From Candidatus Moraniibacteriota bacterium (GTDB lineage Bacteria > Patescibacteriota > Minisyncoccia > Moranbacterales > DUUL01): a stretch of 64,000 nucleotides of DNA. How positions within the stretch are numbered: position 1 is the stretch's first letter; each line of letters starts with the position of its first letter. Location: contig JALVDV010000005.1 of the NCBI GenBank assembly GCA_027008775.1, positions 3,300 through 67,299 on the forward strand, read 5' to 3'. A program made the translations under genes and the position numbers. The notes under the pieces are model-generated. The model had not been told where the DNA came from. It saw only the letters and a list, made by a program, of their open reading frames with translations, and ran no database searches. Positions 12,765 to 30,883 of this stretch are shown here, in pieces.

Positions 12765-13365
12765 GGTGGATTGGGTTAGATATTAAAAATATTTAAAATT
12801 TGCGTCTTGCTTGGGTAAGGTGTCAAAATTGGCGAAAATGGAAAAATGGGGACGACACTTTAAAACCGATTGATATTGGTAAATGCGCAAGGGAACGATT
12901 AAAAAATTGAGCAAACAAAAAACAATCAGCTTGACTGATTTGTTGTTTGTTGAATTGTTTAGAAAACGTTTCCCCCGAACATAAAAGAAGGACCAATACT
13001 ATTTCGGCTTTCTGAAACAGTATCAAATTATTTTTTACGGCTCCCGTCTGACCGAGAGGCAAGGAAATAAATTGCAAAAGCAAATTTATTCCCTCCTTAT
13101 CAAAAATACTGGGTATTTAAAAAAGATGAAACCATTTGTTACTCCCCCACATCAAAGGGGAACCTAAACTTGGCATTAACCCTATTGTATCCGTTTTAAA
13201 AAATTTGTCAAGACAACAAAGGGGCGTCCTGCCAACGCCAATCAAAATGCTTCTTATTTTGCTTTTTTGATTTTAAACATTTCGCGTGACTTTGTCAAAT
13301 TTGAATTCGCCTTTTGCAAGCGGTTGTAATTGATAGTTTGCTTTTCTGAGTTTTTGCTTGATTTT

Positions 13366-13465
13366 GAAAATAGGTTGGTTAATTTTTGTTGCTGAGTTTT
13401 GAGATGGTGGGTTGCTTGTACTATTTTTATTTTTGGATTTACTTTTGGATTTTTAGATGCAATGA
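13366..13465. repeat. Copy A of a ~90-bp T-rich direct repeat (aaataggttggttaatttttgtt...gagatggtgg...)
   Basis: About 85% identical to 17107-17195, same orientation; lies in the long region upstream of rpoB. Confidence 0.6.
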
Positions 13466-13671
13466 GTGAAAATTCGGTGATTCCATTTGAATTGAAACCG
13501 CAAAATGTTTTTATTTTCCGAGCTCAATGAATGGTGGGAGCAGTTGCAAAACTATTACAACTGCTCCATATTGTTTATACGTATCCGTGACTAATATGGG
13601 CCCACATTGTGGTAATATGCGTCCTGAGCCTTACCTAAAAGTGAGCCCTTCATTCTAACTTCGTCTTCTCT

Positions 13672-13833
13672 TTATTTTAGAAAAAATAGGACAACTAAGG
13701 TTGTCCAATACCAATCATGAGTTTTGCGCCAGACCATTAATCCGGCTCCCACGACTATGGCAATTTGTATCAACAGATGAATAGTGTTTCTGCCAGGCAA
13801 ATTATAAAAGAAAAAATTTTTTATTTTTTTCAT
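13672..13833 (-). CDS. Small hydrophobic ORF (53 codons, MKKIKNFFFYNLPGRNTIHLLIQIAIVVGAGLMVW...)
   Basis: ATG with ggagg RBS 6 nt upstream; one TM segment; below ORF-track cutoff. Confidence 0.3.
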   Translation of the reverse strand: MKKIKNFFFYNLPGRNTIHLLIQIAIVVGAGLMVWRKTHDWYWTTLVVLFFLK

Positions 13834-14176
13834 TTTTCCTCCTTTGCCCCTTTTTCAGGGGCTTTTTTGATTTAATTTTCCCACTCTTCCGAGCGGTTTT
13901 TGAGGTGGCAATTTTTTGAAACTGCTATCCCAAAAACCACTCGGAAAAGGTTGAGTTGGGGAGATTGGATTTTTAAAGAACTATTTTTTTCCGTGTCGGT
14001 CTGTGTAATGTCCGTGTTTTTCCGCGACTGCGGAGTAGTAAAAGAATACTTCTCTCAGAAATCTTGTTGATTATCAACAAGATTTCAGTTGAGAGGAGCA
14101 AGTTATTGGTTTATAACTTGCTCCCGAAACTTGTTCCCCTGGTCCACGCCCCGGGGGAAATTTTAGCGAGCGGGAA

Positions 14177-14959
14177 CTAAAATAATTCCCGCAGTATATT
14201 TACTATTTCATCACTGCTCATACCGAGCAGTGATAAGCCCCTAACTTCATCCCAATACTCTGGATTGGGATTGTTTTGGATGTTGTCAATAATTGAATCG
14301 ACAACATCCTTTAATTGTTGTTCCGAGGGGGTATATCCTTCGACATACCTCCTCAGGATTTGTTTTCTTACTATATTTTTTACGATGTTTTCCGGAGAAA
14401 ACATCGCCTGGTGTTCCGGAGGGATAGATATTTCCCCCTCCTCTTCTTCTTCGGCGAGAGATTTTATTCGGACTACGTATGTGTAGTCCGATTGACCCTC
14501 GGTCAGAAAAACTGACCTTGGGTCGAGCTCCGCAAGGAGCTCAACTCCGGCCAAAGCGGCTTCTGCACTGGCTGGGTTAGAATTTTCCATCCCAGCCAGT
14601 TTTTTTATTTCCGCCGGCCCCTTTATAAGGGTGCCGGCAATTGGTATAGTGAGAATTTTGAGACAGCCTTTTCCAAAAGGCTGTCCCAGTCCACCAACTA
14701 CGACTATGTCGTGGTGGGAACAACTCTCCTTTTTTATTTCTACAAACCCGGCCGAACTTCTGGCCGAGTATTCACCCATCAGTAAGATGGGCATTTTTGT
14801 TTCCAGACATCCATTTGATGCCTGGATGATTTTTTTCAATTTTCCGGTCTTCAGCCCATACCGCAGTATGAGCTGGTTGGGAAAATTTTTCACTGCCGTT
14901 ACAGAGGCAGTGAATGTTCTTAATTCCCTGTCCCGGCCGTCTATTACCATTGCTTTCAT
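14177..14959 (-). CDS. Hypothetical protein, 260 aa
   Basis: Long ORF with acidic linker (EEEEEGE) and elevated GC; no family recognised. Confidence 0.5.
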   Translation of the reverse strand: MKAMVIDGRDRELRTFTASVTAVKNFPNQLILRYGLKTGKLKKIIQASNGCLETKMPILLMGEYSARSSAGFVEIKKESCSHHDIVVVGGLGQPFGKGCLKILTIPIAGTLIKGPAEIKKLAGMENSNPASAEAALAGVELLAELDPRSVFLTEGQSDYTYVVRIKSLAEEEEEGEISIPPEHQAMFSPENIVKNIVRKQILRRYVEGYTPSEQQLKDVVDSIIDNIQNNPNPEYWDEVRGLSLLGMSSDEIVNILRELF

Positions 14960-15199
14960 TTTTCCTCCTTTTTTGCCTGCGGGTGTTCCGCAGGCGAAGC
15001 AGTTGGTCCGGGGATGCTCAGCCCCTTATTTTTTATTTTTTAAAGAGCATCAAGCTTTTTAAGCTTGACGCTGTAGGATAGCATAATTTAGTGTTTATGT
15101 CAATGGTTATTATGACATTTGTCTGTAAAATGTCGTTTTTATAGCTTACAAATTGTCTTAAAGCACTTTATTTATTTGATTATTTTGTCATAAATAAAA

Positions 15200-15228
15200 T
15201 TGATAAAATAACTTTAAAATGCTATAAT
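15200..15228 (+). promoter_or_regulatory. Sigma70-like promoter TTGATA-17 nt-TATAAT upstream of the TrmB-like gene
   Basis: ttgata aaataactttaaaatgc tataat; about 95 bp upstream of the ATG at 15326. Confidence 0.5.
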
Positions 15229-15325
15229 GCAAGTACTAAATTGATATTATGTGAATTTTAGGTGGTAAGCAGAAGAGTTTAATATTTCAGAAAAGACAAA
15301 AGAATAATTTGTAATTTACATTGCT

Positions 15326-16084
15326 GTGAAATATATAAAACTGCTAAAAAACATTGGCTTAACAACGGTTCAAGCGGAAATACTTGACTATCTTTTAAAT
15401 ACCGATAAAGAAAAAGCCAGTATTATAGCCAAAAAAATAAAGCGTCCGCGCGGAGTTGTTTACAACAGCTTGGATGAACTGTTGAAATTGGGACTGATAA
15501 CAAAAAAGGATGCCCCCAATCAAGTGAGCACTTTTTCTGCGGAGCATCCCGCTAAACTTAACAAATTGCTTGAGCAATATGAAAGTGATTTAAAACAAAA
15601 AAAGAACGCTTTTGAAAGCGTTTTGCCAAATATGATTTCTAATTATAATCTTGCCCATAACAAACCGGGAGTGAGGTTTTATGAAGGCATAGAAGGAATA
15701 AAAAAAGTTATCTGGGATACATTAACCAGTCAAACAGACATATATACTTACACCGATTTGGAAAAAATAGACGCGCATATCAAAGATATCAATAGGGAAT
15801 ATTCTAAAAAAAGAGACCGCTTGAAGATACGCAAAAAAGCTCTTTTGGCTAATTCTGATTATGCTAGAAACGCTTTAAAAAACTACGCGACCACAAATTT
15901 AGAGGTTAGATTTATACGCGACATTCGTCATTTTGCGACCATAATGCAAATTTATGATAATAAAGTTTCCTATATAACACTCAGCAAAGACAAAATGATA
16001 GGAATTATTATTCAAGACCAAACAATATACAATATGCACAAAAGTCTTTTTGAAAGTATGTGGAAAACCGCTGAAAGATATTAG
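15326..16084 (+). CDS. TrmB-family winged-helix transcriptional regulator
   Basis: 252 aa; N-terminal LTTVQAEILDYLLNTDKEKASIIAKKIKRPRGVVYNSLDELLKLGLI wHTH typical of TrmB-like regulators. Confidence 0.65.
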   Translation: MKYIKLLKNIGLTTVQAEILDYLLNTDKEKASIIAKKIKRPRGVVYNSLDELLKLGLITKKDAPNQVSTFSAEHPAKLNKLLEQYESDLKQKKNAFESVLPNMISNYNLAHNKPGVRFYEGIEGIKKVIWDTLTSQTDIYTYTDLEKIDAHIKDINREYSKKRDRLKIRKKALLANSDYARNALKNYATTNLEVRFIRDIRHFATIMQIYDNKVSYITLSKDKMIGIIIQDQTIYNMHKSLFESMWKTAERY

Positions 16085-16087
16085 CAT

Positions 16088-17074
16088 TTATACTTCTTTC
16101 TCTTTACGTATCTTCCAAATCTTGATATTGCCCAAATTAAATTCGCCGTATTTCTTGAATCCCTTTTCCTCAAGATAAGTTTTGGTTATTTTTTTGTTTG
16201 GGAGCGCTGTGGCTATAATTGTGGCGTTTTTTGACTCTTTGTCCAGAGATTCCTCCATCATTATCTCGCCCAGTTTTGAAAATCGGTGATGTCTATCCAC
16301 GTTAAAATTGGCAAATTCAACAATGCCATCTTCCTGAGGAGTGAAGCTGTTAAAAGCCAGCACTTTCCCATTATAATACAATATGTAAAACTTTGAGTTA
16401 GGATTTGCGAGCTTGTCATTTAAGCTCCCAAATAAGGCCTGTAGAAGCAATTCTCCATCCTCCAGATGTTCAAATAGTGAGTAGTTTTCCCGATAAATTT
16501 TCTTCATTTCTTCAACTACCTTCTTTTTATTTGCCAGCTCCGGACCGGAAATAGTATCCAGCTTAATGCCTTTAAAGTATTCCAAGAGATTTTTCTTTTT
16601 ATTTTTCTTTAAATATTTTAACACTTCTTTAAAGATCTCTCTGTTGATATCTAATGACGCTATCACATCCTCAACAAATTTCGGATTTGTGGCATCAAAA
16701 GAGTCGGCTAGCGCGCGTAAGAAATTAATCCCTTTTTGTTTTAATCCTTGGGTAATTTCATTTACTTGAACCAAATCAGTCTTGTTAAGATTTTTTTGCG
16801 TCCAACGTTCAACTTTGTCTGTTGCATCATCAAATTCGGCATATTTTGCAAAAATTTTATCCAGCAATTCTTTGTCGTATTTACGGGTCAGATATAAAGC
16901 TTTTTCACCATCACCCTTTTTGTCTTGTTCCAGAGCTAAAAATGCTTTTAAACCATTAGTACCGTATTTTTTAATAAAATCAGTATTTTTGATTTTTTCG
17001 GGGATGGTGTTTTTGTCCTTTTTGTCGTCTTTTTGTCTGGTGTTTTCTATTGTAAATTGTGGTTTGTTTTCCAT
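16088..17074 (-). CDS. Hypothetical protein with C-terminal GNAT acetyltransferase-like domain
   Basis: 328 aa; C-terminus ...HHRFSKLGEIMMEESL...YLEEKGFKKYGEF resembles GNAT motifs A/B. Confidence 0.5.
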   Translation of the reverse strand: MENKPQFTIENTRQKDDKKDKNTIPEKIKNTDFIKKYGTNGLKAFLALEQDKKGDGEKALYLTRKYDKELLDKIFAKYAEFDDATDKVERWTQKNLNKTDLVQVNEITQGLKQKGINFLRALADSFDATNPKFVEDVIASLDINREIFKEVLKYLKKNKKKNLLEYFKGIKLDTISGPELANKKKVVEEMKKIYRENYSLFEHLEDGELLLQALFGSLNDKLANPNSKFYILYYNGKVLAFNSFTPQEDGIVEFANFNVDRHHRFSKLGEIMMEESLDKESKNATIIATALPNKKITKTYLEEKGFKKYGEFNLGNIKIWKIRKEKEV

Positions 17075-17106
17075 ATATTTATTTCATTGAACTTTTCCCT
17101 GGTCTT

Positions 17107-17195
17107 GGAAATAGGTTGGTTAATTTTTGTTTTTGGGTTTTGGAGATGGTGGATCAATTGTGCTGTTTTTATTTTTGGGTTTTTAGTATTGGCTG
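17107..17195. repeat. Copy B of the ~90-bp T-rich direct repeat
   Basis: About 85% identical to 13366-13465; 33 bp upstream of the start of the 16088..17074 gene. Confidence 0.6.
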
Positions 17196-17576
17196 TTCAT
17201 TGTTGTTTTTGAAAATATTCGCTATTCTTTCCTTCTGTTTGGGGGCGATATTTTTTGGTAAGTTCCGGGGATTAAAAAAACGAATGTCGTCCGCTTCAGC
17301 GGTATTGATTATTTTTCCGCCTTGAATGTTACAGATAAAATTAAAAACTATTTCGTTCAGCGATGGTTTGTGATAAATTCCGCTTAATTTTTCTATTTTT
17401 ACGCTCAATCCCGTTTATTCTTTGGTTTCCCTGGCAACCGCTTGCCACGGCGACTCCCCTTTCTCCACTCCGCCTCCGGGCAAATTCCACAAATCATAAT
17501 CCCGCCGGTGGCACAATAAAATTTCTTTCTTTTTATTGAAAATAACAGCAAAGACGCCGATGGTAAATTTGGTCAT
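17169..17576 (-). pseudogene. NUDIX hydrolase gene interrupted by in-frame TAA (17416-17418) at the second Glu of the NUDIX box
   Basis: Single frame reads MTKFTIGVFAVIFNKKKEILLCHRRDYDLWNLPGGGVEKGESPWQAVARETKE*TGLSVKIEKLSGIYHK...; the canonical GX5EX7REUXEEXGU box has TAA where GAA is expected. Confidence 0.6.
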
Positions 17577-17613
17577 TGTTGCCACAAATTATTTACGGTT
17601 TTAGAAAGTGAAA

Positions 17614-18354
17614 CTACTCGCTGATTTTAATGTATTCAATCTCCCCTTTGGGGTTGATATACTTTAAAGCCAAAATGGGTTTCTCACTTTTCTTGATTTT
17701 CCAAACCGCCACGGTTGTTTCAGGATGACCATTGTTTAATTTTATATCTAAGCTTTTAGTCAATCCCTTTTTTCTGGCTAAAGTCCAGCTGTATCCAGAG
17801 CGAGAAAAGTGGGATTTGTTGTCAGAAGTAATAATTACTAGAGCCGGAGCCGGGTCCCAACCGGATTCGTCCAGTTTTGTGGGATGAATAGTCTCACCGG
17901 TGGGAGTGCCGGCCGAACCCTTGAAATCGTAAATAACATAGTAAAAAATTTTATCTCCCGTGGCTTTGTGAATACTGTTTAATTCTGTCAGCCGACCGGT
18001 TTCTTTGATTTTAAAAGTTGCTTGTCCGGTCAGGGAAATTACATTCTTTTTTATGTCGTCATAAGTCGTGTTTTTCTTGGGAACATTTTTGTAATCTCGC
18101 AAGCGATATTTTATATTTATTTCTTCCCCCACCTTAGCTGTCCGCACGAAATGTATCTTGTCTTTCTTTCCTTGTTGCTCCTCCATAGTTTTTTGCGCTT
18201 TTTCTACAATACTTTTAGCTGACTGCTTGCTCCCTTTTTTGTCTGTTGATGTACCAGTCTTGTTGTTTTTGCCACATCCACTCAAGACTATTACTAAAAA
18301 CAAAACAAAGAATATAGCTAGTCCTTGAGTGATAATTTTATTTTTTTTGTTCAT
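17614..18354 (-). CDS. Lipoprotein, hypothetical
   Basis: 246 aa; signal peptide plus lipobox LSGC. Confidence 0.6.
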   Translation of the reverse strand: MNKKNKIITQGLAIFFVLFLVIVLSGCGKNNKTGTSTDKKGSKQSAKSIVEKAQKTMEEQQGKKDKIHFVRTAKVGEEINIKYRLRDYKNVPKKNTTYDDIKKNVISLTGQATFKIKETGRLTELNSIHKATGDKIFYYVIYDFKGSAGTPTGETIHPTKLDESGWDPAPALVIITSDNKSHFSRSGYSWTLARKKGLTKSLDIKLNNGHPETTVAVWKIKKSEKPILALKYINPKGEIEYIKISE

Positions 18355-18520
18355 AGTTTTAAGTTTAAAAAATTTAATAGCCGATATTTTTAATTACTGG
18401 CGCTAATGAGTCATAAAAAGTTTTAGCGCCACCCTGCCCTTGTGATAACTGAAAGCTGTTGGTCTAAACCAATTATATTATATTTTTCTTTTTTGAAAAA
18501 GATACATTCCCCCTGGATTG

Positions 18521-20825
18521 ATTTATAGAAGTAGAAATTTGATAGGTCTATTTGAGGTGGGGATTTCGGACAGGAAGTTATAAATCTACAAAAGTAGAAA
18601 TTTGATAGGTCTATTTGAGAAAAATGACCTTACCTACCACTATGGAAATCTACAAAAGTAGAAATTTGATAGGTCTATTTGAGGATAAGGGGAATAGACC
18701 ACGGAGAAAATCTACAAAAGTAGAAATTTGATAGGTCTATTTGAGCTGCGTTGTATTGCAAATCATCGCCGTATCTACAAAAGTAGAAATTTGATAGGTC
18801 TATTTGAGCTGTTATTATGGACAAGAAATTAAGACAATCTACAAAAGTAGAAATTTGATAGGTCTATTTGAGTTTGCCAATGTCATCAATTATCCTAGAA
18901 TCTACAAAAGTAGAAATTTGATAGGTCTATTTGAGAAAACACCCCTTAATTCACCTAAATTATCTACAAAAGTAGAAATTTGATAGGTCTATTTGAGGCT
19001 GGCAGGGAAGAAGGTTTAAGACTGCATCTACAAAAGTAGAAATTTGATAGGTCTATTTGAGTACCACTTTATCACCTTTTTTTATGTCATCTACAAAAGT
19101 AGAAATTTGATAGGTCTATTTGAGTACCTCGTCTGGTTCAAGATTCTTATCATCTACAAAAGTAGAAATTTGATAGGTCTATTTGAGCAAACGCTTTGCC
19201 AGATTCTTTTTCCGATCTACAAAAGTAGAAATTTGATAGGTCTATTTGAGAGGAGATTGCCTAAAGGTAGCTACTACATCTACAAAAGTAGAAATTTGAT
19301 AGGTCTATTTGAGAAAGGGAAGGAATTTGTTGAGTTTTTCAATCTACAAAAGTAGAAATTTGATAGGTCTATTTGAGACGGTGGCCGATGAGTATTACCA
19401 CCGAATCTACAAAAGTAGAAATTTGATAGGTCTATTTGAGGATATAATCCCATGCGATTGGGTCTTGATCTACAAAAGTAGAAATTTGATAGGTCTATTT
19501 GAGTAGGAAATGACACTGTCCCGGTTATTATCTACAAAAGTAGAAATTTGATAGGTCTATTTGAGCATCCTCATAAAAGCGAAAATAAAAGTATCTACAA
19601 AAGTAGAAATTTGATAGGTCTATTTGAGTAACAAAAAAATCAACCCTGCTATAAATCTACAAAAGTAGAAATTTGATAGGTCTATTTGAGCCTGATTTCC
19701 TCTTTATCAAAGCAACAATCTACAAAAGTAGAAATTTGATAGGTCTATTTGAGGGTCTCCGTCAGCAATGACTGGTGAGAATCTACAAAAGTAGAAATTT
19801 GATAGGTCTATTTGAGCAATAGCCGATGAGTATTACCACCACGATCTACAAAAGTAGAAATTTGATAGGTCTATTTGAGAATATCCCTATATTATAGCTA
19901 TATTATAATCTACAAAAGTAGAAATTTGATAGGTCTATTTGAGAAGATTAGAAGTAAGATAATCGCCAGTATCTACAAAAGTAGAAATTTGATAGGTCTA
20001 TTTGAGCTGTTACATGGACGGAGCAAGGTAAGAATCTACAAAAGTAGAAATTTGATAGGTCTATTTGAGAGACCGTGAGCGGTGCGGGATGAAGTAATCT
20101 ACAAAAGTAGAAATTTGATAGGTCTATTTGAGTTCGTGAATTATTGGACGGAGCCAAACAATCTACAAAAGTAGAAATTTGATAGGTCTATTTGAGTTGG
20201 CGAAGGAAGCTTGATTGACTTCGTATCTACAAAAGTAGAAATTTGATAGGTCTATTTGAGTCCAAGGTGTAAATGTTGCAAATTATCATCTACAAAAGTA
20301 GAAATTTGATAGGTCTATTTGAGATAGGGGGGAGTCTGCAAGGTAGCAGTTATCTACAAAAGTAGAAATTTGATAGGTCTATTTGAGTTCATTAGACGGG
20401 CGGGAACGGAACAAATCTACAAAAGTAGAAATTTGATAGGTCTATTTGAGAAAGAAGGTTCTGGCCAGTCAGTATCATCTACAAAAGTAGAAATTTGATA
20501 GGTCTATTTGAGCTACAAGACAGACAAGGAATGGCAAATCTACAAAAGTAGAAATTTGATAGGTCTATTTGAGACAACGATGCGGCCGGCTGGCTTGTTT
20601 ATCTACAAAAGTAGAAATTTGATAGGTCTATTTGAGGTAATAGTCAAGCACCGCCTTTTTAAATCTACAAAAGTAGAAATTTGATAGGTCTATTTGAGTG
20701 GTGGTGCTAATTATTACACGCTAGAATCTACAAAAGTAGAAATTTGATAGGTCTATTTGAGCTCTGAAACACCAAAGCTTCATAGGATAATCTACAAAAG
20801 TAGAAATTTGATAGGTCTATTTGAG
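18521..20825 (-). CRISPR. Type V-A CRISPR array, 37 repeats of 36 bp and 36 spacers of 25-28 bp
   Basis: Plus-strand unit ATCTACAAAAGTAGAAATTTGATAGGTCTATTTGAG; crRNA strand CTCAAATAGACCTATCAAATTTCTACTTTTGTAGAT carries the Cas12a hairpin UCUACU..GUAGA; period 61-64 bp; leader-distal repeat (18521-18556) is degenerate (3 mismatches in the hairpin). Confidence 0.97.
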
Positions 20826-20990
20826 ACCACAAATCCTTTATTTAAGCCAAAAAGATGCAAGTTGTGGCACATAGCCCCAACGACTTTTTGGCTTAAACAA
20901 GGCAAAACCGAGACATTCAAATTGCGGTTTTGTATTTTTTGAACAGACCCACGGAAATTTCCACTTTTCTTAAGTTGTAAAAGTTCAATC
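20826..20990 (-). promoter_or_regulatory. CRISPR leader with 14-bp perfect inverted repeat (20841-20854 / 20884-20897)
   Basis: AT-rich 165 bp between the cas2 stop and the first repeat; TTTAAGCCAAAAAG ... CTTTTTGGCTTAAA. Confidence 0.55.
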
Positions 20991-21272
20991 TTAACTGATA
21001 TAAATGAGGTCGGACTCTTCATGTTTAGCGTAACCGTATCTTTTAACTTTTTTCTTGCATCCTTCACATAACCGGAAAATATAAATACTATCGGCATTAC
21101 TGAATTTTTTCTGATATCTTAATTCTACCTCAGTTAAAATATTTTGCAAGACTCGTTCACTATCACGTACTTGCCAAACCGAGTATTGAATACGATTGCC
21201 GTATTTTTCCAAAAAACGCGCAAATTTGGTCCTTGTTTTGTCATTTTCAAAATCGTAAGAAACAATCAGCAT
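20991..21272 (-). CDS. cas2: CRISPR-associated endoribonuclease Cas2
   Basis: 93 aa; MLIVSYDFENDKTRTKFARFLEKYG..., Cas2 size and fold pattern; immediately downstream of cas1. Confidence 0.85.
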   Translation of the reverse strand: MLIVSYDFENDKTRTKFARFLEKYGNRIQYSVWQVRDSERVLQNILTEVELRYQKKFSNADSIYIFRLCEGCKKKVKRYGYAKHEESDLIYIS

Positions 21273-21281
21273 AAATTCATT

Positions 21282-22280
21282 TTAACGAATTACGAAATCT
21301 TTTACTTCACCCTCTTCATTTAAGATTAAATAATAGTAGTTGCGAATATAGTGATAGATGTCCATTTTGTATCGTAAAATTTCTTGTAAGAAAATTTTGG
21401 CGTACTTCCCACTATTTTTGTAAGACAAATAGTATTGTCCTTGTTTGTAGCCAAAATCTTTTTTGTCAAATTGTCCCAAGGTATGCATTTTAAACAGAGC
21501 CTTTTCAATTATACAGCGAAATGGTTCCATCATATCACAGGCTAAAGATTTTCTCTGAAAAAATAGTTGATGATAAATTCCTTTATAAGTATCAAAACCG
21601 TAAACTCGCAAAATGGAATCAATAAAATGAAAAAGGAAATTGTAGCCCATATCAAGCAGGATGTTATTTTCATCAACTTTTCCTCTGGGCACCCGCCGGT
21701 ACCAGTTTATTTTGGAAAAATAAGCGCTAAAAAAGTCTTTGGAAATTACGCCTTCTATTCCTCGGAGTGACGCCAAATCGTTAGTATTTTTTATTTTCTG
21801 GCGCATTTCTCTTTTATATTGCAAACGAGATTTCTTGTTAATTTTTTTAATTCCGGCACTACGCAACAAGGCAATTGAATTTCGTAATTTATTGGCAACG
21901 ATTTTTTGGGAAATTTTCAGAGATTGTTCCGGAGACAAAGAATATTGTTTTTGGCGCAAAATATAATTTCCTTCGGCATAAGCGCCCGTGTTAGCATAAG
22001 TCTCAAAATTACGTTTCAAAAAATACAAGGAGGCGCCGACTCGTGAAATTTTTTGCAATAACTTGCTAGTAATGGTTAGGTCTCCAATAATAAAAATTGC
22101 CACCAATTTGTTGACGGGAATTTTATCCTTAGTTTTTCCATCTTCTCTAATTAAAATATTTTCATTACGCAAACTCAATTGGCAATCGGGAATTTTCATT
22201 GCATCTAAGAAAAATATTTGTCTTTCTTTGAAATCGGGCGCCTGGATCATGGTGTTGAAATTAAAAGTTAACTGCCGCAT
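21282..22280 (-). CDS. cas1: CRISPR-associated integrase Cas1 (longest ORF extends to 22355; start at MRQ 22280 or MIQ 22250 more likely)
   Basis: About 330 aa; Cas1-like N-terminal beta-domain (IFFLDAMKIPDCQLSLRNENILIRED), position between cas4 and cas2. Confidence 0.85.
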   Translation of the reverse strand: MRQLTFNFNTMIQAPDFKERQIFFLDAMKIPDCQLSLRNENILIREDGKTKDKIPVNKLVAIFIIGDLTITSKLLQKISRVGASLYFLKRNFETYANTGAYAEGNYILRQKQYSLSPEQSLKISQKIVANKLRNSIALLRSAGIKKINKKSRLQYKREMRQKIKNTNDLASLRGIEGVISKDFFSAYFSKINWYRRVPRGKVDENNILLDMGYNFLFHFIDSILRVYGFDTYKGIYHQLFFQRKSLACDMMEPFRCIIEKALFKMHTLGQFDKKDFGYKQGQYYLSYKNSGKYAKIFLQEILRYKMDIYHYIRNYYYLILNEEGEVKDFVIR

Positions 22281-22881
22281 TTTGACGAGTTGCTCCACTT
22301 TCCTGACGGCATAACTCACGATAAATACAAGCAGAACATTTAGCCTTGCTAACATTTGTGTTTTTATGAAAGCTGAAACTTCTTATTTCAGAAAGTGTTT
22401 GCCAAAATAACTCTTTCTGTTTTTCGCCAATTTCAACCGGATAAACACGATTATCAACCAATGAATAAAGTTTTATTTTTTTAACGGGATATCCCATTTC
22501 CTCCAAGCACAATTTTTGAGCATATAATTGAAATAGATATCCGTCATAGACTTTTTTGATCATTCGCTTTCTTTCAATCAACTCCTGTTTTTTGGTGTCA
22601 TAGATATCAATCTTACCGATTATTCCGTGTCGGGCGGAGAAAACTTCCATTCCTTGTAAAATATTTTTTCGGGAAGAAAATTTTCCTTCTTCTACGCTTT
22701 TATGCGCAATTGTACCGGCAATCTGCGGGCGCGCTTTATATTGCGTTTTATCAAAACTTTCATAAACGCTGTGGAAATACAACGATCGCGGGCAAAAAGT
22801 GAAATCATTGATTTTAGAAATTTGGATATAATCGTAGTACATATTTTTTTGCTTAAATGAAAACAGCGCATTGTAGCACAA
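22261..22881 (-). CDS. cas4: CRISPR-associated exonuclease Cas4
   Basis: 206 aa; N-terminal CPRSLYF and C-terminal Cys cluster CSACIYRELC (RecB-like nuclease with Fe-S cysteines). Confidence 0.8.
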   Translation of the reverse strand: MCYNALFSFKQKNMYYDYIQISKINDFTFCPRSLYFHSVYESFDKTQYKARPQIAGTIAHKSVEEGKFSSRKNILQGMEVFSARHGIIGKIDIYDTKKQELIERKRMIKKVYDGYLFQLYAQKLCLEEMGYPVKKIKLYSLVDNRVYPVEIGEKQKELFWQTLSEIRSFSFHKNTNVSKAKCSACIYRELCRQESGATRQNAAVNF

Positions 22882-22917: not shown

Positions 22918-25900
22918 TTAGTTATTATTTATTGCTCTTCTTTCAAATTCTGGATAAATAAGATTATAAGCCGCCAAAGTATCTGGAGAATCTATTCCAA
23001 GCTCATTATTTCCTATTTCAAAATCGCAAAACTGACATTTTTGCGTAATTTTTATATATTTTTTAATTCCGTCTTTATTAGTGAAATTAAATTGTAGGCA
23101 TTCAGGGCAAAAAGAGCTACTTTTACCAGTTGGCAAATACTTTATAATTCCCGCTTGTTTTAATTTTTTGATCTCTGCAAAGTAAATTGTTTGCCCCAAT
23201 TTTGGCGGAACTAAATCAAAATCATTTTCAATTTTTCCAAGTCTTCTGTAAAGAGCCCATTCAAATTCCCTGCTTATTGCCCTGCCGTTTTTACTGTGGT
23301 CATCCTTGAATTGAGCCGATAGGTCTTCAAGGTGAATAATCGCTTGGTTGTTAAATTCTTTTTCAATCAAATACGCTATCACACCTGCAATATTGCTTGC
23401 CAAAGCTTCTTTTGTGTTTTTAGGCAAAGTATCTATTGAAATTTGTCCTATTTTTATGAGTGGCAATACTCGTTCATTAAATATCTTCAACTTGTGTTCC
23501 AACACTTTTATCAAAAAAGCAGAAATGAAATTTTCTTTAACATCTTCTGTAATATTCCCATTTAAATACAAATAACTTGCATTTATTCCAAATTTTTTAG
23601 AATTTATTCCATTAAATTTAAGCTGAATTGTTTTTGTTTTATCAACAAACCCAGGTTCAGCCACTATAAGGTTTTCTACCTGCTCAATGTTCAAATCTGC
23701 AAAAGTGATATACATTAGTTGATTTACAACTGATGAAATATCAGCATTCATAATCACTTTATCTTTAATAACTTTTGCATAACTTAAATTTTCTTGGCTT
23801 ATTTCTTTTTCTATTAAGTGCTTGGTGTATTTTGTATAAGGCTTATTCTCATCAAACAAAAGCGATGGGTTTAAAAATATTTTAACTGCACCTTCTTGAT
23901 TTTCATCAAATATCTTTTTGTAATCTATGTAGTAAACCTGTATTTTCTGAAACTTTACTCTACCTTCCTCAATCTTTCCAAAAACAGCAGACACAAGTTC
24001 TGATTCACCCCTATCCAAACCAATTCTTACCGCATTTTTTAAGTTTTCATTAACCACTTTGTTTAATTCAAATATTCTTGTCTCCAAATCTTCATCTTGC
24101 GCAAAAGCTGGCAAAAAGTCTTCTTCTTCTTTTGCGTTTTTTGTAATAGTAAAGACAATGCTTAGTCTATCTTTACCACGTCTTGTTTTGCTTGCTAATT
24201 CTTTTAGCTCTTCACTACTTTGAGTATCAAGTCCTAATTCTAGGAAAATCTTAATCTCTGGGTTTAGTCTAATTGATTCAAAATCTTGTTTTTTAATACT
24301 TTGGAGTAATTCTTTTTCCTCCTTTAAGTATCTTCTGTTTTGCCTGTAATTTCCTTTTACTCCTGAGCTAGTAAGTAAAAACAAATTGCTAAATTGCAAA
24401 TTGTTTGGGTTGTTAAATTTCTTTTGTGCTTCTTGAATTAGTTTTATTAATTTACCACTATTTACATTTGCAACTAAAACAAAATTATAAAGCTCTGTAA
24501 AATCTTTTTTAAAGTCAGCTACATCGCTGTAATCTTTCTCTACAATTGAAATTGATTTTTCAGCAAACGAATGACTCAACTCAATATGACTAAATCGATT
24601 TTTTGAATTACAAATAAGCTTATCTACGACACCTATAAATTTATCAGCTTCTTTTTGTTCTTGTCCTCCAAGTGATGCATATTCTATAAGCTTTTTAAAC
24701 TCTTCTACTACTTTACATTTAAGTGCTGCTGCTTTTGTGCTATTAATAGATCCTGCATCAAGCAAGTATTTAATCAAAAACGCTTTAAATGCAAAAATTG
24801 TATGCCATTTGCCAGCTTTAAAAAATGGGATGAGCTCGCCCAAATTAGCACTTATCAAAGTCTTTGCAGAACGGAGAGTTAAAGATTCTATTTTGTAAAT
24901 TTTCTTGTCTCCAACAGGTTCATTTAATCTCTCAAGAGTGTATAAAAATTCTTTTTTAAATTTTTTGGGAACAAGTAATAAATCAAAGTTTTCATCTTTT
25001 TTATCTAAAACAAGCAATGCCAGATGGCTTAAATTTTTTTTATCCTTTTTATATGTTGCTATTTTTGCTTTTATATTGCCAATATATTTTGCAACTTTGT
25101 TTTTATTTTGAATAAAGTTAGATTTGTTTATTATGTGTGTATAATTTGTACCTGCTGTGTGCGCCGCCTTTTGTTTTTTATTGAGCAAAATTTCAATTAT
25201 TTGAGATTCTTCCAAGTTATCTTCTGACTTGTTGTTTATGATTTTTGCTAGCTCATTAGCTGCATTTTTGCGCTCTGGTTTTATTTGATATTTTTTGTTT
25301 TCTTTTCCAATCAAGTTATCAATTAAAACTTTTAAAATTCTGTTTCGCAAAAATTTAATTAGAAAATCATCTTTAATATTTGAGGGTAAATCTGGCAAGT
25401 ATTTTTTAAAAATATTTATTGCAGAATTTTTTATGTTCTGATCTATTTTTATTTTATTTACTCTTATTTTGTCTTTATTAGATTTTACAAATTCTTCCAA
25501 ATCAGAACCAATAATCTGCTTTGCAAGCTCATCTACCTCTTTTTTCAATCCTTTTATTTCAGTTTTATAACCTTCCGCAATAATTTTGTAAAACTTTTTT
25601 GTCCATTTCCCCGCTTCCTCTACTGTAATAAAGTTATCATTAATTGATTTTCCTAGATAATTCATCGTTGCTTTAAATGCATTTTTATGACCTGCTACAA
25701 ATCTGCTTATGTAATTTAAGTTATCTTTAAGATCCCCCGCCCAAACTTTTTGGGTCAACTTATCTTCTTCTTCTTTAATCTTTTTTTCTCTTTCTTCGAG
25801 AGTAGTTTGTCTTGTAAGAGTATGTTCGTTTAGCGATGCTGTTATGACTTCGTGAAATATGGAGAGTGATTCTTTGAGCTTATCTAAAATTTTTGATAGT

Positions 25901-26487
25901 TTTGCTAAAGTTTTTTGCAACTCTGCAAACTCTTGCGGAACAAGATCATCAGAATGATAATTTTGCTTTTGGATCAAATCAATTGCTTCTTTTAAGGTTG
26001 GCGCTTTTCGTTTTAGCAACTCATGTTCTATATCGAGTGAGCTTTTAAAGATTTCATCTAATATTTTTCTTGTATTTTTAGGAGAAAAATTGGGTGTATT
26101 TTTTTCTGTTAGTTGTTTTTCGAGCGAAATGAGTGATTCGTTTGTTTTTTTAAATAAAGTTGAGAAGAACCCTTTAAGTTTACGACTATTTAAGCGCAAG
26201 CTATCTGCTCGCCCAGAACCTGAAATAAACAAACCAAACTCTGACCCAATGATATGCGGAGAAAGTTTTAGCTTGTAGAGTAAACTTTTGTATTCATCTT
26301 TTTTTACTTCTTCTTTGTCAAATAATTCTATTACTTTCTTTAAAATCTCTATAAGTCTGGAACACAATTCTTCAGGATCAGCTGTATTCTTTTTATAAGT
26401 CTCGATTGCATTTTTTAAATTAGACTCAAAATTTTCATTAACTTTCAAAGCCAGTCTAATAGCAGATGTTTTTTGATACTTGTTCAT
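22918..26487 (-). CDS. cas12a2: Second type V effector, Cas12a2-like (RuvC nuclease with C-terminal zinc ribbon, no Nuc domain)
   Basis: 1189 aa, 19 bp downstream of cas12a. Motifs: N-terminal NKYQKTSAIRLALKV (like the Cas12a WED start), RuvC-I IGLDRGESE (~aa 826), RuvC-II IIHLEDLSAQ (~1054), CPEC...CQFC (~1127-1154), RuvC-III DSPDTLAAYNL (~1166). Confidence 0.7.
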   Translation of the reverse strand: MNKYQKTSAIRLALKVNENFESNLKNAIETYKKNTADPEELCSRLIEILKKVIELFDKEEVKKDEYKSLLYKLKLSPHIIGSEFGLFISGSGRADSLRLNSRKLKGFFSTLFKKTNESLISLEKQLTEKNTPNFSPKNTRKILDEIFKSSLDIEHELLKRKAPTLKEAIDLIQKQNYHSDDLVPQEFAELQKTLAKLSKILDKLKESLSIFHEVITASLNEHTLTRQTTLEEREKKIKEEEDKLTQKVWAGDLKDNLNYISRFVAGHKNAFKATMNYLGKSINDNFITVEEAGKWTKKFYKIIAEGYKTEIKGLKKEVDELAKQIIGSDLEEFVKSNKDKIRVNKIKIDQNIKNSAINIFKKYLPDLPSNIKDDFLIKFLRNRILKVLIDNLIGKENKKYQIKPERKNAANELAKIINNKSEDNLEESQIIEILLNKKQKAAHTAGTNYTHIINKSNFIQNKNKVAKYIGNIKAKIATYKKDKKNLSHLALLVLDKKDENFDLLLVPKKFKKEFLYTLERLNEPVGDKKIYKIESLTLRSAKTLISANLGELIPFFKAGKWHTIFAFKAFLIKYLLDAGSINSTKAAALKCKVVEEFKKLIEYASLGGQEQKEADKFIGVVDKLICNSKNRFSHIELSHSFAEKSISIVEKDYSDVADFKKDFTELYNFVLVANVNSGKLIKLIQEAQKKFNNPNNLQFSNLFLLTSSGVKGNYRQNRRYLKEEKELLQSIKKQDFESIRLNPEIKIFLELGLDTQSSEELKELASKTRRGKDRLSIVFTITKNAKEEEDFLPAFAQDEDLETRIFELNKVVNENLKNAVRIGLDRGESELVSAVFGKIEEGRVKFQKIQVYYIDYKKIFDENQEGAVKIFLNPSLLFDENKPYTKYTKHLIEKEISQENLSYAKVIKDKVIMNADISSVVNQLMYITFADLNIEQVENLIVAEPGFVDKTKTIQLKFNGINSKKFGINASYLYLNGNITEDVKENFISAFLIKVLEHKLKIFNERVLPLIKIGQISIDTLPKNTKEALASNIAGVIAYLIEKEFNNQAIIHLEDLSAQFKDDHSKNGRAISREFEWALYRRLGKIENDFDLVPPKLGQTIYFAEIKKLKQAGIIKYLPTGKSSSFCPECLQFNFTNKDGIKKYIKITQKCQFCDFEIGNNELGIDSPDTLAAYNLIYPEFERRAINNN

Positions 26488-26506: not shown

Positions 26507-29500
26507 TTATAAATCTCTTTGTTCACTTCTCTGTTGGTGTGTATACTCATCCCACTCTTTCAAAATGACTTTTGCCTTGTTTTTTTCCGCAAGATTTTGT
26601 TTTGCGAGTATTCCTTTTCTCGCAATATTATATGCACCAACTGCGTCGCCGTTTATAAGATGGTTTGCTTTTCTTGTATCAAAGTGACAACTTGGACATT
26701 GTAAAACATCTCTTTTGTCATCCTCTATGTCAGACCAGTTATCTTCAAAACGCAAGTTAGTCCAGTATTTAAGGGCCATTTTAAGTTTTGAAAAACTTAC
26801 TTCAATATCGGGAATTTCAAAAATATTTTTGTTAATGGCTAAATCATCCAAATCAACATCCAACAAAGCTTCTTTTAAAATTTTTGTTACATTAATCCTT
26901 TCTACATTATGCTGTTTTTTTCTCCAGACTGATCTATCTATATTGCTGTAAATTGTTTCAAAACCATTTGAATCTGTAAGTAAATAATCTGAACGGAATG
27001 GAATTTCATTGCCGCTGGGATTTTTATATTTATATTCCCATTTGTATTTTACAATAAATCTGTCGTTTTCTTTATCGTAGAATAGTTGCAAGTCTTTTTT
27101 ATCCATCATTTTTCTTATGTCTTTGCTTGAACCAAAATTTACACCCCGTCTTCTGTATCCGCACTTCGGACAAGTTTTTGAGGTAAACTTTGCATCCACA
27201 TAAAACACAACCCCTTGTTGTGAGCCCCATTTGTATTGCGGACCAACAGGTGGAACAAGTTGGTATGCATTTCTTATCCCTCCTGAGGTCTTTTCTTTTA
27301 CAAAGTATTCAAGCTTATGCAGAAGCGCATTTTCAAGTTGCTGATAAATATTTTTTTCAATTTTCATCCTTCCGCGCTTGAAGCCTCTGTTTAGCTCTTC
27401 CATTGTAAGAATCGTGTTATTATCAACAATCATTTCAGCAAGTTTGCGTATAACAAAAGATATGTAACCCTTCTTTAAGTCTTTTATCTGCTCTATTGTT
27501 TTCCAAAGCTTTCTGTTTTTCATTCTTTGCTCCTCCCTTGCAGTTAGTTTTTCCTGAAATTTAATGCCTTCTATTTCATTTAAAGAATCTATCTCTTTTA
27601 TATTTCCATCTTTATCAAGCAGGCAATAATAAGCCAAATGCTTTTCTCCTCTGTCTACTCCTATAACAGAGATTTCATCTTTATTATTTTTTATATATTC
27701 TTTAATTTCATCAGCAACTCCCCCCTTTCCTGCCAGCCTGTTTATTTCTATTGGAACATGGAATAATATTTTTGGACTTGCAAATCTCTTTTTTCTGTAA
27801 GGAATTTTATCTGTTTTTGGTTTTTTTAGTTCTGCTTTTGAAACTTTTTCTCTTTCTGACTCTGGCAATGCATCACGGAAAAATACTTCTGCTTGACCGG
27901 ATAGTTTAAATTGCGAATTCTTTTTATTTTCTGCTGAAAACAGCTCCAAAAAGTATAGAGTATGAATGTTTTTTGTTGAATCTGCCTCTTTTTTATCTGA
28001 AAAATCTTTATTGTAAATTTCAAATAACACCAAATTTGTAGGCGGATTCTTTTTGTTTACATTAATAAATTCTATTTCATACATATATTTTTCAAGGGTC
28101 GCAATATAACACATAGCAACTTCATTTCCAGATAAAACACCTTCTTTTTTATCAAGAATGCTTTTTATTTTATTAACAATGCAGTGTAACGGAATTGTGT
28201 TTAATATTTGTTCATCTACCAGATATTTTGACAATTCTTCCATTCTATCAAGTTTAGTACTCTTATCAGAATCATCGTCTTTGTATTCAGTAGAAAACTT
28301 TTTCGCATACAAACTCGACAGTTTTTCATAAGATAATTCAAAATCAACTTTACCTGATTCCAATAAAGCTACTATTTCTTTAAATTTATCTGTTATTGCA
28401 CTAAAATAATTTGTCTTAACAAATTTTTCATTCAAAAATTCTGCAAGCATTTTATTAATCTTTTTTACAGCCGTGTCAGGATTCTCTTTTCGTAATCTTT
28501 CAAGGGTGTAATTTGGTGAAGATTCATTAAAGTACCCTCTCCAACTAGATCCAAACAAGGTTTTATTCTTTAGTAGCTTGTATTCCATTATTTCAAAACC
28601 GTCTAAATTAAAATTGTTTTCTATCCTAAATGGCAATTTAGCATTAATTCCAAGATGATACTTATCATTCTTTTTTAATATAAATGCCTCATACTGATTT
28701 CCCCATCTGTTTTCTGTCTTTTTCAAAGACCATCCATCTGCTAGTTTTTGCCTTTCAAAAGTAAGCTTTATCTTATCCTCAACAACTATCGCTTTCGTAG
28801 CATAATTTCGCGTAGCATTGAATGCTTCGTTGATTTTGTTTTTTCTCGGATTTATTTTTACAATTTCTTGCAAAGCTTTATTTGTGTACAAACTTTCATC
28901 GTCTGCCAATTCAAACAAGTAAAGGAATTTGTTCATATCATTCAAGCGGTAAAACAAAATGCTTAACTTTTCCATGTAGTCATTACGTTTATTTTTGCTT
29001 TCTTTTATCTGTTCACCATGCGCGCTGACATAAGATTTTAAATCTTCAAACAACTCTCTTAAACTTTTATGCTCTGGGCAAGTTTTTTTGTCACAACTTT
29101 CTTCCATTTCTTTTTCTTCAACTGCTGTGTGCCAAGCTCTTCCATTTCTTAATGAATTAAAGTAAAGCTCAAATACTAAAAGTAAGTTATACAAAGCGGC
29201 GTCGCCTGTATCTTCTTGAGAAAATTTTTGTAGTTCTTCTTTTGGTAAGTTCCACGCGCTTTCTTCTTTTACCAATTTATACAAATCTTTTCCTGTAAGA
29301 TTTATTTTTGTCTTTTCTGAGCTGTCTGGATCTTCAACTTTAAACCTAAAAATTTGCACCAACTCACTCAGCGCTATTTCATTCTCATCTAAGAATTTGT
29401 TTACAGAATCAATAACTTGCTTTTCTTCCCCTGTCAATTCATCGTCTTTTTTGTTCTTTAATTCTTCTTTTACTCTTTTTACCGCATCGCGAAATACTTC

Positions 29501-30883
29501 CCAATTTCCAAATGCAAAATTAGATATGAAAGATAGCTGATTTGTATTTAGCCTAAACTCGCCTAATTCAGTCTCCGGGAAATTAAGTTTTTTATTTTCT
29601 TTATCAAGAAGTCCTGTAAATATATCTTTATCCAATAAGTCTACCGCGTATTGCAAAAATGGCTTTCCGTCATAATCATTTGCTACCAATAGGAATTTTT
29701 GCAACTCGTCAATAGTATCAAACTCTAAAAATTCATCTTTACTATCACTGTTTTCATCTTTGTTTTCTTTTCCTAAAATTTGCTTGTAAAGTTTTTTAAA
29801 GAAATCCGGTTTTTTGCCTGACCCTTGCAATTTCTCGTTTAAAAATCTGTTTGCAATCCCAACAGCTTTATTGTATATATCAATTTGAGATTGCGATAAA
29901 ACATTTGCAAAATTTTCAGGTTTAAATATATCTGAGTTTACAGATAATTCTTTGCTTAGCTGTTCATCTAATTTTGCTTTGTAGTCTTTTTCGGCTATTT
30001 GACTTAAATATTTTTGATAGTTTTGTACAAAAAGCTCGGCATTGTCATCAAGAATTCTTGTTGTGATTTGATGTGCGAGGCCTTTTACAATTCCGCTGTT
30101 TTCTGTATCTGAATCATACCCATCGGTATCATATATTTTCGCGCGAATTTGATAGAATTTGCGTAAATAAGTTTTCCATTTATGAAAAAACGAAAATGGA
30201 TTCAATGCGTCTGCTTCTTTACCCCAGCTTATATCTTCTAAATCCCAATCTTGTTCGTCTATATAATGTTTAAAAATCTCAGCTTTTTTTAAATCTTCAA
30301 TAGGAATTTCTCTAAAAGCTTCTACTAATTTATCTGCCCCAGGGTCACCAGCACCTGTTAAAGCATTAAAGTCAATCGTAATATTTCTTTCACCTATCGC
30401 AATTTCTATTGCGTTATTTTTGTTTTTTAAAACCTTGTTTATTGAGCTGGCCAATTCTTTTTTAAGTTTATTTACATTTTTCTCAATATCTGATAAGTCA
30501 TCACTTTCTCTTGATTTTTTGTTTTTATAATCAACTAATTTATTTATAAGTGAGGCAAAATCATCAGAAAGGGATTCTGTATTATCATTTTCACTTAAAA
30601 CCCTGTCTATATACTCTGCATGCAAAGCGGTAACAAGCTTTTTAAACAGAGAAAAAACTCTCGCGCGTTTCTTGTCTCTTTCTAAAAGGTGTACTCCGGT
30701 TTTATTTTTGTTTATAAAATATTTCGCTTTATCTTCCCTTGTAATTTTATCCATACTTGAATACCCTCTCTCGCTTACAATTTCTTCTAGTTCCTCGTCT
30801 ATTAAAACAGGAACGAGTGAGAAGCGAAGCGTTTTTTGTAATGAATACTTGTTCGTAAAATCTTTAAAGCTTTGTGTGGTCAT
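26507..30883 (-). CDS. cas12a: Type V-A effector Cas12a (Cpf1), 1458 aa
   Basis: N-terminal FTNKYSLQKTLRFSLVPV; RuvC-I IGVDRGEKHLAYY; RuvC-II ELNRGFKRGRMKIEKNIYQQLE; RuvC-III GDAVGAYNIARKG. Confidence 0.92.
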   Translation of the reverse strand: MTTQSFKDFTNKYSLQKTLRFSLVPVLIDEELEEIVSERGYSSMDKITREDKAKYFINKNKTGVHLLERDKKRARVFSLFKKLVTALHAEYIDRVLSENDNTESLSDDFASLINKLVDYKNKKSRESDDLSDIEKNVNKLKKELASSINKVLKNKNNAIEIAIGERNITIDFNALTGAGDPGADKLVEAFREIPIEDLKKAEIFKHYIDEQDWDLEDISWGKEADALNPFSFFHKWKTYLRKFYQIRAKIYDTDGYDSDTENSGIVKGLAHQITTRILDDNAELFVQNYQKYLSQIAEKDYKAKLDEQLSKELSVNSDIFKPENFANVLSQSQIDIYNKAVGIANRFLNEKLQGSGKKPDFFKKLYKQILGKENKDENSDSKDEFLEFDTIDELQKFLLVANDYDGKPFLQYAVDLLDKDIFTGLLDKENKKLNFPETELGEFRLNTNQLSFISNFAFGNWEVFRDAVKRVKEELKNKKDDELTGEEKQVIDSVNKFLDENEIALSELVQIFRFKVEDPDSSEKTKINLTGKDLYKLVKEESAWNLPKEELQKFSQEDTGDAALYNLLLVFELYFNSLRNGRAWHTAVEEKEMEESCDKKTCPEHKSLRELFEDLKSYVSAHGEQIKESKNKRNDYMEKLSILFYRLNDMNKFLYLFELADDESLYTNKALQEIVKINPRKNKINEAFNATRNYATKAIVVEDKIKLTFERQKLADGWSLKKTENRWGNQYEAFILKKNDKYHLGINAKLPFRIENNFNLDGFEIMEYKLLKNKTLFGSSWRGYFNESSPNYTLERLRKENPDTAVKKINKMLAEFLNEKFVKTNYFSAITDKFKEIVALLESGKVDFELSYEKLSSLYAKKFSTEYKDDDSDKSTKLDRMEELSKYLVDEQILNTIPLHCIVNKIKSILDKKEGVLSGNEVAMCYIATLEKYMYEIEFINVNKKNPPTNLVLFEIYNKDFSDKKEADSTKNIHTLYFLELFSAENKKNSQFKLSGQAEVFFRDALPESEREKVSKAELKKPKTDKIPYRKKRFASPKILFHVPIEINRLAGKGGVADEIKEYIKNNKDEISVIGVDRGEKHLAYYCLLDKDGNIKEIDSLNEIEGIKFQEKLTAREEQRMKNRKLWKTIEQIKDLKKGYISFVIRKLAEMIVDNNTILTMEELNRGFKRGRMKIEKNIYQQLENALLHKLEYFVKEKTSGGIRNAYQLVPPVGPQYKWGSQQGVVFYVDAKFTSKTCPKCGYRRRGVNFGSSKDIRKMMDKKDLQLFYDKENDRFIVKYKWEYKYKNPSGNEIPFRSDYLLTDSNGFETIYSNIDRSVWRKKQHNVERINVTKILKEALLDVDLDDLAINKNIFEIPDIEVSFSKLKMALKYWTNLRFEDNWSDIEDDKRDVLQCPSCHFDTRKANHLINGDAVGAYNIARKGILAKQNLAEKNKAKVILKEWDEYTHQQRSEQRDL

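Follow-up and report, generated by a model that had tools for sequence, protein, structure and literature searches.

Probable loss of function through a nonsense codon in a dispensable NUDIX hydrolase gene of an uncultured Moranbacteria-like Patescibacteria species

The Nudix superfamily (PF00293) includes a small single-domain subfamily that is widespread among the Patescibacteria, with hundreds of intact members of ~140-150 aa. The glutamates of the Nudix box are Mg2+ ligands, and the catalytic base differs between Nudix enzymes (PMC4974056). The gene addressed in this work is 54-78% identical to these intact proteins and shares with its subfamily a full-length domain match, the remaining Nudix-box positions and the subfamily signature CHRRDYDLWNLPGGG. 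Unlike the members of the superfamily, however, the copy described here cannot encode the domain, because the second glutamate of the EE pair is a stop. Polymorphic single-nonsense pseudogenes of bacteria offer the closest parallel: they combine one point mutation in an otherwise intact frame with persistence of the intact allele and with an independent or secondary deletion in another strain. Nothing essential distinguishes the present locus from them, and it is unusual only in that it can be traced across several public CPR metagenomes. The locus also resembles cases of stop-codon reassignment and read-through, in that an in-frame stop occupies a position where an amino acid is needed. UGA is read as glycine in Gracilibacteria/Absconditabacteria, and TAG or TGA is recoded in some phages; bacteria are not known to reassign UAA or to read through it in a programmed manner.

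The gene lies in a 64-kb stretch of DNA, referred to here as the window. Named relatives of the RpoB protein encoded in it belong to Candidatus Moranbacteria and other Patescibacteria (72-76% identity), as do the relatives of the Nudix protein; both rpoB and rpoC are present in the window. In our interpretation, to which we give a probability of roughly 0.86, an uncultured Moranbacteria-like Patescibacteria species carries here a dispensable NUDIX hydrolase gene in the form of a genuine loss-of-function allele. Its parts are as follows.

17169..17576, minus strand: NUDIX hydrolase gene, probable pseudogene allele, 135 codons plus stop, broken at codon 54
17418..17576, minus strand: N-terminal 53 codons, up to RETKE of the Nudix box, the sole portion expected to be translated (family profile, Pfam and gene calls)
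17415..17417, minus strand: premature TAA at codon 54 (TTA on the plus strand)
17172..17414, minus strand: in-frame downstream 81 codons, undecayed, matching the family profile

Translation of the minus strand (window 17600..17160) reads from the ATG at 17576 through MTKFTIGVFAVIFNKKKEILLCHRRDYDLWNLPGGGVEKGESPWQAVARETKE to the TAA, resumes as TGLSVKIEKLSGIYHKPS...QPILKTQK (TGLSVKIEKL...LKTQK) and ends at the natural stop TAA at 17169-17171. Set against the Nudix box G-x5-E-x7-R-E-U-x-E-E-x-G-U, the gene gives GgvekgEspwqavaREtkE, the stop and then tGL, so that of the EE pair the second Glu is lost. The in-frame TAA reported at this position by the initial annotation is thus borne out both by translation and by the family profile, and the downstream half is indeed retained in frame, with the 79-aa ORF starting at a TTG found at 17169..17408. 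Two of the figures given there require correction: the stop occupies 17415-17417 and not 17416-17418, where read pile-ups were to be inspected, and the N-terminal piece comprises 53 rather than 52 aa when read from ATG 17576 (56 aa from GTG 17585). The description of the lost residue as the catalytic Glu holds insofar as this is the invariant Glu of the Nudix box, but the term is a loose one, given that the glutamates are Mg2+ ligands (PMC4974056), and 'essential metal-binding Glu' is the more accurate designation for codon 54.

Both sides of the stop belong to a single gene. The repaired 135-aa protein matches Pfam PF00293 over residues 4-118 (E = 6e-23, 81.7 bits against a cut-off of 21.1), and the N-terminal half still does so by itself (E = 1.5e-14, 54.6 bits). 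The C-terminal piece, which comprises the remainder of the Nudix helix together with the C-terminal beta-strands and tail, matches no family on its own. On a profile built from 14 homologues and the query itself, the two stop-to-stop segments align to positions 2-53 (E = 2e-31) and 55-134 (E = 3e-35), leaving a gap of exactly one codon in the same frame. The halves are hence consecutive on the family profile, which makes a chance juxtaposition of ORFs impossible. The TAA allele carries no frameshift and no second stop. What the window allele lacks is an uninterrupted ORF for the whole alpha/beta/alpha domain, of which the stop leaves 53 of the 135 codons, and a complete Nudix box with all its metal-binding glutamates. 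The gene is therefore best filed as a Nudix pseudogene allele.

The lost glutamate is under strict conservation in the family. Some 570 proteins match the query at E <= 1e-3, the nearest intact homologues being 78% identical (P0001/P0124, 142 aa) and 73% identical (P0002, 154 aa); in the GTDB representative genomes the relatives reach at most 61% identity and none is of the same species. The homologues checked are single uninterrupted ORFs, none of them split, and the EE pair with its second Glu is kept in all 119 of the 119 closest listed homologue clusters. At the nucleotide level, the orthologue comparison that had been proposed for this site returns GAA in 63 and GAG in 18 of the 81 relatives' loci, and a stop in none. 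Most family members carry a C-terminal tail of ~10-15 residues (GxSSIxLxKxGKL) that is missing from both alleles of the species, which end in ...LK(T/I)QK (window 17169-17185).

Labels within the subfamily vary among 'NUDIX hydrolase', 'ADP-ribose pyrophosphatase YjhB' and '8-oxo-dGTP diphosphatase', and the 'YjhB' label on homologues is an automatic JGI annotation. No substrate is assigned by the NCBIfam equivalogs (MutT, RppH, NudB, NudE, YffH and others), all of which score far below their cut-offs, both for the MutT 8-oxo-dGTP diphosphatase (TIGR00586, 43.3 bits against 97.9; NF008044, 38.3 against 148) and for the ADP-ribose pyrophosphatase type (TIGR00052 YffH/AdpP, 19.5 bits against 79.55; NudE NF008736, 19.9 against 169). 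Of the solved structures, 3smd comes closest (E = 1e-16); like the others near the query, it is an uncharacterised member of the 'MutT/NUDIX family'. A search of the window with the family profile located no second Nudix paralogue able to compensate for the broken one.

Comparison with other assemblies establishes that the stop codon is real. An exact-sequence look-up found the 53-aa N-terminal product called in JGI and Logan assemblies, together with a V8A variant of it, and the 90% cluster of the C-terminal half includes a 135-aa ENA protein. Five further loci of the same species were retrieved, designated L001 to L005. The sequence AAA GAA TAA ACG is present in L001 (SRR8439053), L002 (SRR18691003), L004 (SRR13622961) and L005 (SRR33151379), whereas L003 (ENA ERZ23491057, JOHN19-1_SAMN10217873) reads AAG GAG GAA ACG and encodes an intact 135-aa NUDIX protein (P0121). 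The single transversion from GAA to TAA postulated by the initial annotation is the difference observed at the stop codon between the window and this intact allele, the neighbouring codon being also different but synonymous (GAG in L003, GAA in the window); the changed base lies at window 17417 and reads T in place of G on the coding strand, or A in place of C on the plus strand. L003 further shows a 12-nt duplication-like insertion directly after the NUDIX stop codon.

A single-base difference from an intact allele is just the kind of change that sequencing or assembly errors produce, and the true codon could on that account be GAA. The same TAA nonetheless recurs in four further assemblies, which come from other SRA runs and strains and were built with another assembler, and this recurrence on different backgrounds excludes an error, so that the sequencing error initially entertained has to be rejected and an artefact retains a practically nil probability. 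Nor are the TAA carriers duplicates of a single assembly. As a measure of their flanks we used a neighbouring gene, which is listed here with its position.

17614..18354, minus strand: 246-aa gene, hypervariable among strains (from the ORF list; no family match)

Relative to the window, this gene differs by 0% in L001, 7.0% in L002, 4.9% in L004 and 5.1% in L005; in addition, the last CRISPR spacer of L002 differs from that of the window, and L001 has unrelated DNA at the site of the window's CRISPR array. The four other TAA assemblies thus occupy at least three different flanking backgrounds. The four SRA runs could nevertheless stem from related sites: a literature search with the run, sample and assembly accessions returned no relevant paper. 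A scan of metagenome contigs for the exact stop-region pattern, in which GAR-NAA was allowed, produced no further haplotype, the source contig evidently lying outside that collection.

Once the stop is accepted as real, it might be argued that it is not obeyed. A TAA that is read through or decoded, by programmed read-through, a suppressor tRNA or reassignment, would yield a full-length active enzyme, and such a reading accords with a downstream half that is whole and in frame, with the placement of the stop at a required Glu and with the Cas12a gene of a related MAG, in which a Glu codon has likewise become an in-frame stop (GAG to TAG). Against it, TAA is the main terminator of the window (17 of the stops of 29 non-overlapping long ORFs, with 10 TAG and 2 TGA) and TAA-A the commonest stop tetranucleotide (11), which is the very context of the internal NUDIX stop. 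ORFs of 1138, 1199, 1189, 1458, 2099 and 2264 aa run uninterrupted. tRNA-Gly(TCC) is the sole tRNA gene within the 64-kb window, which thus holds no suppressor tRNA. Moreover, a recoded stop would be expected to be conserved in orthologues, whereas here the relatives have GAA or GAG and L003 has GAA; nor is TAA a codon unused as terminator, or recurrent in frame, in the ORFs of the window, no other gene being affected. In an AT-rich genome, the codons for Glu rank with those that most commonly give rise to TAA and TAG in one step, so that two Glu-to-stop events are unremarkable. The standard code fits the window and nothing suggests that TAA is decoded; read-through, which the initial annotation had left as an option, is unsupported and in our view very improbable.

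A related proposal would have the gene split into two functional parts, with the 53-aa fragment and a C-terminal fragment initiated at TTG 17408 both made and acting together or separately. An in-frame TTG does lie two codons past the stop, and a gene caller derived the 79-aa ORF from it. The break, however, interrupts the Nudix helix and costs the protein an invariant metal-ligand Glu, there is no split relative, and 22 of the 24 trusted genes of the window start with ATG. The C-terminal piece, which alone matches no family, is absent from Logan gene calls, and a look-up of the 79-aa TTG ORF as a called gene returned no record. A Shine-Dalgarno test before TTG 17408 is uninformative, because such a motif precedes only 2-3 of the 24 confidently called genes of the window, whose start regions are A/T-rich; this scarcity suggests that initiation in the organism is largely SD-independent. 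We hold a split gene to be extremely improbable. Re-initiation at TTG 17408 would be possible in principle, but no C-terminal fragment devoid of the Nudix box could act as a hydrolase.

Under the preferred reading of a genuine loss-of-function allele, one G-to-T transversion on the coding strand has turned the GAA of the invariant second Glu into TAA. Ribosomes should then terminate at codon 54 and release a 53-residue fragment that would end inside the Nudix helix, without the beta-strands of the C-terminal part or the second helix of the alpha/beta/alpha fold. Without the C-terminal half of the fold, this fragment should be inactive and is probably unstable, so that no enzyme would be made.

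The distribution of variation within the gene bears on the age of the allele. L003-type bases occur in L005 at codons 6-9 and in L004 through codon 20, both sequences being of the window type thereafter and carrying the TAA. These within-gene blocks of SNPs would reflect either recombination with an L003-like haplotype or the short contigs of L004 and L005 being strain chimeras, and the argument from recombinant backgrounds is weakened to the extent that Logan contigs might be such chimeras. Beginning at about codon 21, the remainder of the gene is identical in all the TAA carriers that cover the region, and the downstream 81 codons are identical in the window, L001 and L002. An invariant TAA haplotype on diverged flanks must be young relative to the divergence of those flanks, and the absence of further lesions and of sequence variation among carriers likewise marks the TAA allele as recent. 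When the intact allele is taken as reference, codons 1-53 give a pN/pS of 0.04 (2 differences non-synonymous, 14 synonymous) and codons 55-135 one of 0.17 (4 non-synonymous, 6 synonymous), but this relaxation of constraint downstream of the stop is not significant (Fisher p = 0.15) in a test that is underpowered, complicated by the mosaic history of the gene and thus unsuited to dating the lesion. Undetectable relaxation fits a recent event, as it would also fit continued function of the C-terminal half.

A second disruption of the gene is seen in a sister strain. A search with RpoB retrieved a 100% identical protein on GCA_026992875.1 JALWYA010000093.1 and on ENA scaffold ERZ23491050 (JOHN19-1_SAMN10217877), two records (L090/L091) that amount to one underlying assembly, on which the deletion described here therefore rests. 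In blastn, window 18544-17444 is covered by L090 8059-9160, after which the alignment resumes at window 13597. The deletion spans 3.85 kb and takes with it NUDIX codons 45 onward, leaving 44 codons in a gene that both records call as 75 aa. The segment and the genes inside it are the following.

13598..17443, no strand assigned: segment deleted in the sister strain (blastn blocks and junction sequence)
16088-17074: GNAT gene
15326-16084: TrmB-type regulator
14177-14959: ORF

GTGG microhomology is seen at the junction, along with a small number of filler bases, and the NUDIX remnant carries D28N at a family-invariant Asp. With codon 54 among those lost, the deletion may have arisen on the TAA background and not independently; whichever the background, loss of the gene by deletion indicates that it is dispensable in the species. 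Over the ~21 kb common to the window and L090, every other gene is equal in length, which argues against a generally decaying region. Part of an ORF-poor spacer is also missing in L090/L091. This spacer (12765-14176, the 1.4 kb immediately upstream of rpoB) matches nothing in Rfam and offers no convincing ORF in any of the frames, its sole candidate gene being a 53-aa hydrophobic ORF at 13672-13833, and its distal part (13598 onward) lies within the L090 deletion. A search of the window for further TAA-interrupted genes, which would have pointed to recoding, gave 12765-14176 as its one candidate, where in-frame TAAs lie between open segments of moderate length; it was rejected, no coding signal being found in any frame.

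The species thus presents three states of the NUDIX gene, intact, nonsense and deleted, which taken together indicate that the gene is being lost from the lineage. The initial annotation had offered a freshly inactivated pseudogene as one of its explanations, and this is the one that stands, with no further lesions, a coexisting intact allele and a deletion elsewhere; yet the allele is already widespread. On the sequences at hand, the TAA allele appears to be widespread in the sampled population, on what would be several recombinant backgrounds, and the best reading is that of a recent loss-of-function allele spreading or drifting through a recombining population.

The 246-aa gene lies 37 nt upstream of NUDIX on the same strand, and the two are hence probably co-transcribed. 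The protein appears, from its N-terminal hydrophobic Cys-containing leader, to resemble lipoproteins. DNA divergence among strains is 5-7% in this gene and 0-2% in the adjoining ones, making it a local diversity hotspot that stems either from diversifying selection or from recombination. Beyond it lies a Cas12a CRISPR island, whose elements are listed here together with a nearby tRNA gene.

18529-20826: CRISPR array of ~36 repeats, with Cas12a-type repeat ...ATTTCTACTTTTGTAGAT on the minus strand
20792-21097: 101-aa ORF, presumably cas2 (no family hit)
21282-22355: Cas1
22261-22881: Cas4
22918-26487, minus strand: second Cas12a-like gene, 1189 aa, between cas4 and the canonical Cas12a gene
26507-30883: canonical Cas12a gene, 1458 aa
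31658-31730: tRNA-Gly, just beyond the CRISPR-Cas island

The array ends in a degenerate repeat at ~18515-18545. Between 18545 and 31200 the GC content is 29-35%, as opposed to ~40% elsewhere, and this whole island is absent from L090/L091, with their identical RpoB protein, where the degenerate terminal repeat alone remains. The canonical Cas12a gene (window 26541-29728) is 97.5% identical in DNA to positions 1-3222 of L086 (GCA_027038515.1, JALVWD010000014.1), while the Nudix orthologue of that MAG, a different species, is only 78% identical in protein, a disparity that implies recent horizontal transfer. The L086 gene has an in-frame TAG at the window's GAG (Glu, ...KKTCPEHKS...), a second G-to-T Glu-to-stop lesion, and no cas4, cas1 or array follows it before the end of the contig ~2 kb downstream. 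Neither Pfam nor NCBIfam yields a hit for the 1189-aa ORF, and no sequence relative is found in PDB even at E <= 10, but it matches the PADLOC 'Cas12a' profiles PDLC01230 (E = 3.5e-47) and PDLC01232 (E = 4.8e-42), and it has in common with the adjacent Cas12a the RuvC-like motifs IGLDRGE, LEDLS and the CPEC zinc ribbon, with 29% identity over 126 aa. Judging by these similarities, the ORF appears to encode a further type V effector, the second to use the one array; it is very divergent and possibly of the Cas12a2 type. The Cas12a island with its second Cas12a-like gene is more notable than the NUDIX nonsense allele itself.

The vicinity of this island raises the possibility that the loss of NUDIX is adaptive, relieving for example a cost linked to the neighbouring defence genes, and that the TAA has spread by recombination in a gene-specific sweep. 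No carrier departs from the TAA haplotype between about codon 21 and the end of NUDIX, while differences of 5-7% are seen in the flanking 246-aa gene, and the species has a second disruptive NUDIX lesion. The gene is ~1 kb from the Cas12a CRISPR array, the 78% orthologue also adjoins a Cas12a gene, and the gene weakly matches PDC-S07, a candidate defence gene of PADLOC (E = 4.7e-16, 56.7 bits, to a profile without a curated cut-off). That match is, however, no better than generic Nudix similarity, the 73% orthologue sits among arginine-biosynthesis genes and most family members are away from cas genes. Furthermore, the TAA accompanies the array in the window and in L002 but other DNA at that site in L001, and thus shows no association with CRISPR presence. 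An association of NUDIX with defence islands, as drawn from the PDC-S07 match and the proximity of Cas12a, is accordingly a hint to which little weight should be given. Neutral hitch-hiking or drift would yield the same pattern if the adjacent surface-protein gene is under diversifying selection: an invariant TAA haplotype on diverged flanks fits a gene-specific sweep and fits equally drift beside a diversifying surface-protein gene. We therefore consider adaptive loss unlikely. It is quite improbable, too, that the TAA is as such the selected state, either through a favoured loss of NUDIX, possibly tied to the Cas12a island, or through low read-through that keeps a trace of enzyme; if it were, this would be a nonsense codon that persists and spreads by recombination across CPR strains.

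Taken as a loss-of-function allele, the NUDIX TAA is a textbook nonsense pseudogene, and one practical consequence is that the 53-aa and 79-aa 'proteins', being fragments of a single pseudogene, should not be annotated as separate proteins. The intact, nonsense and deleted alleles can all be recovered from public metagenomes, with apparent recombination breakpoints inside a 400-bp gene. The locus thereby provides a clean natural case, of modest value, of ongoing gene loss in an uncultured Patescibacteria species with a reduced genome: an ordinary gene loss caught in progress.
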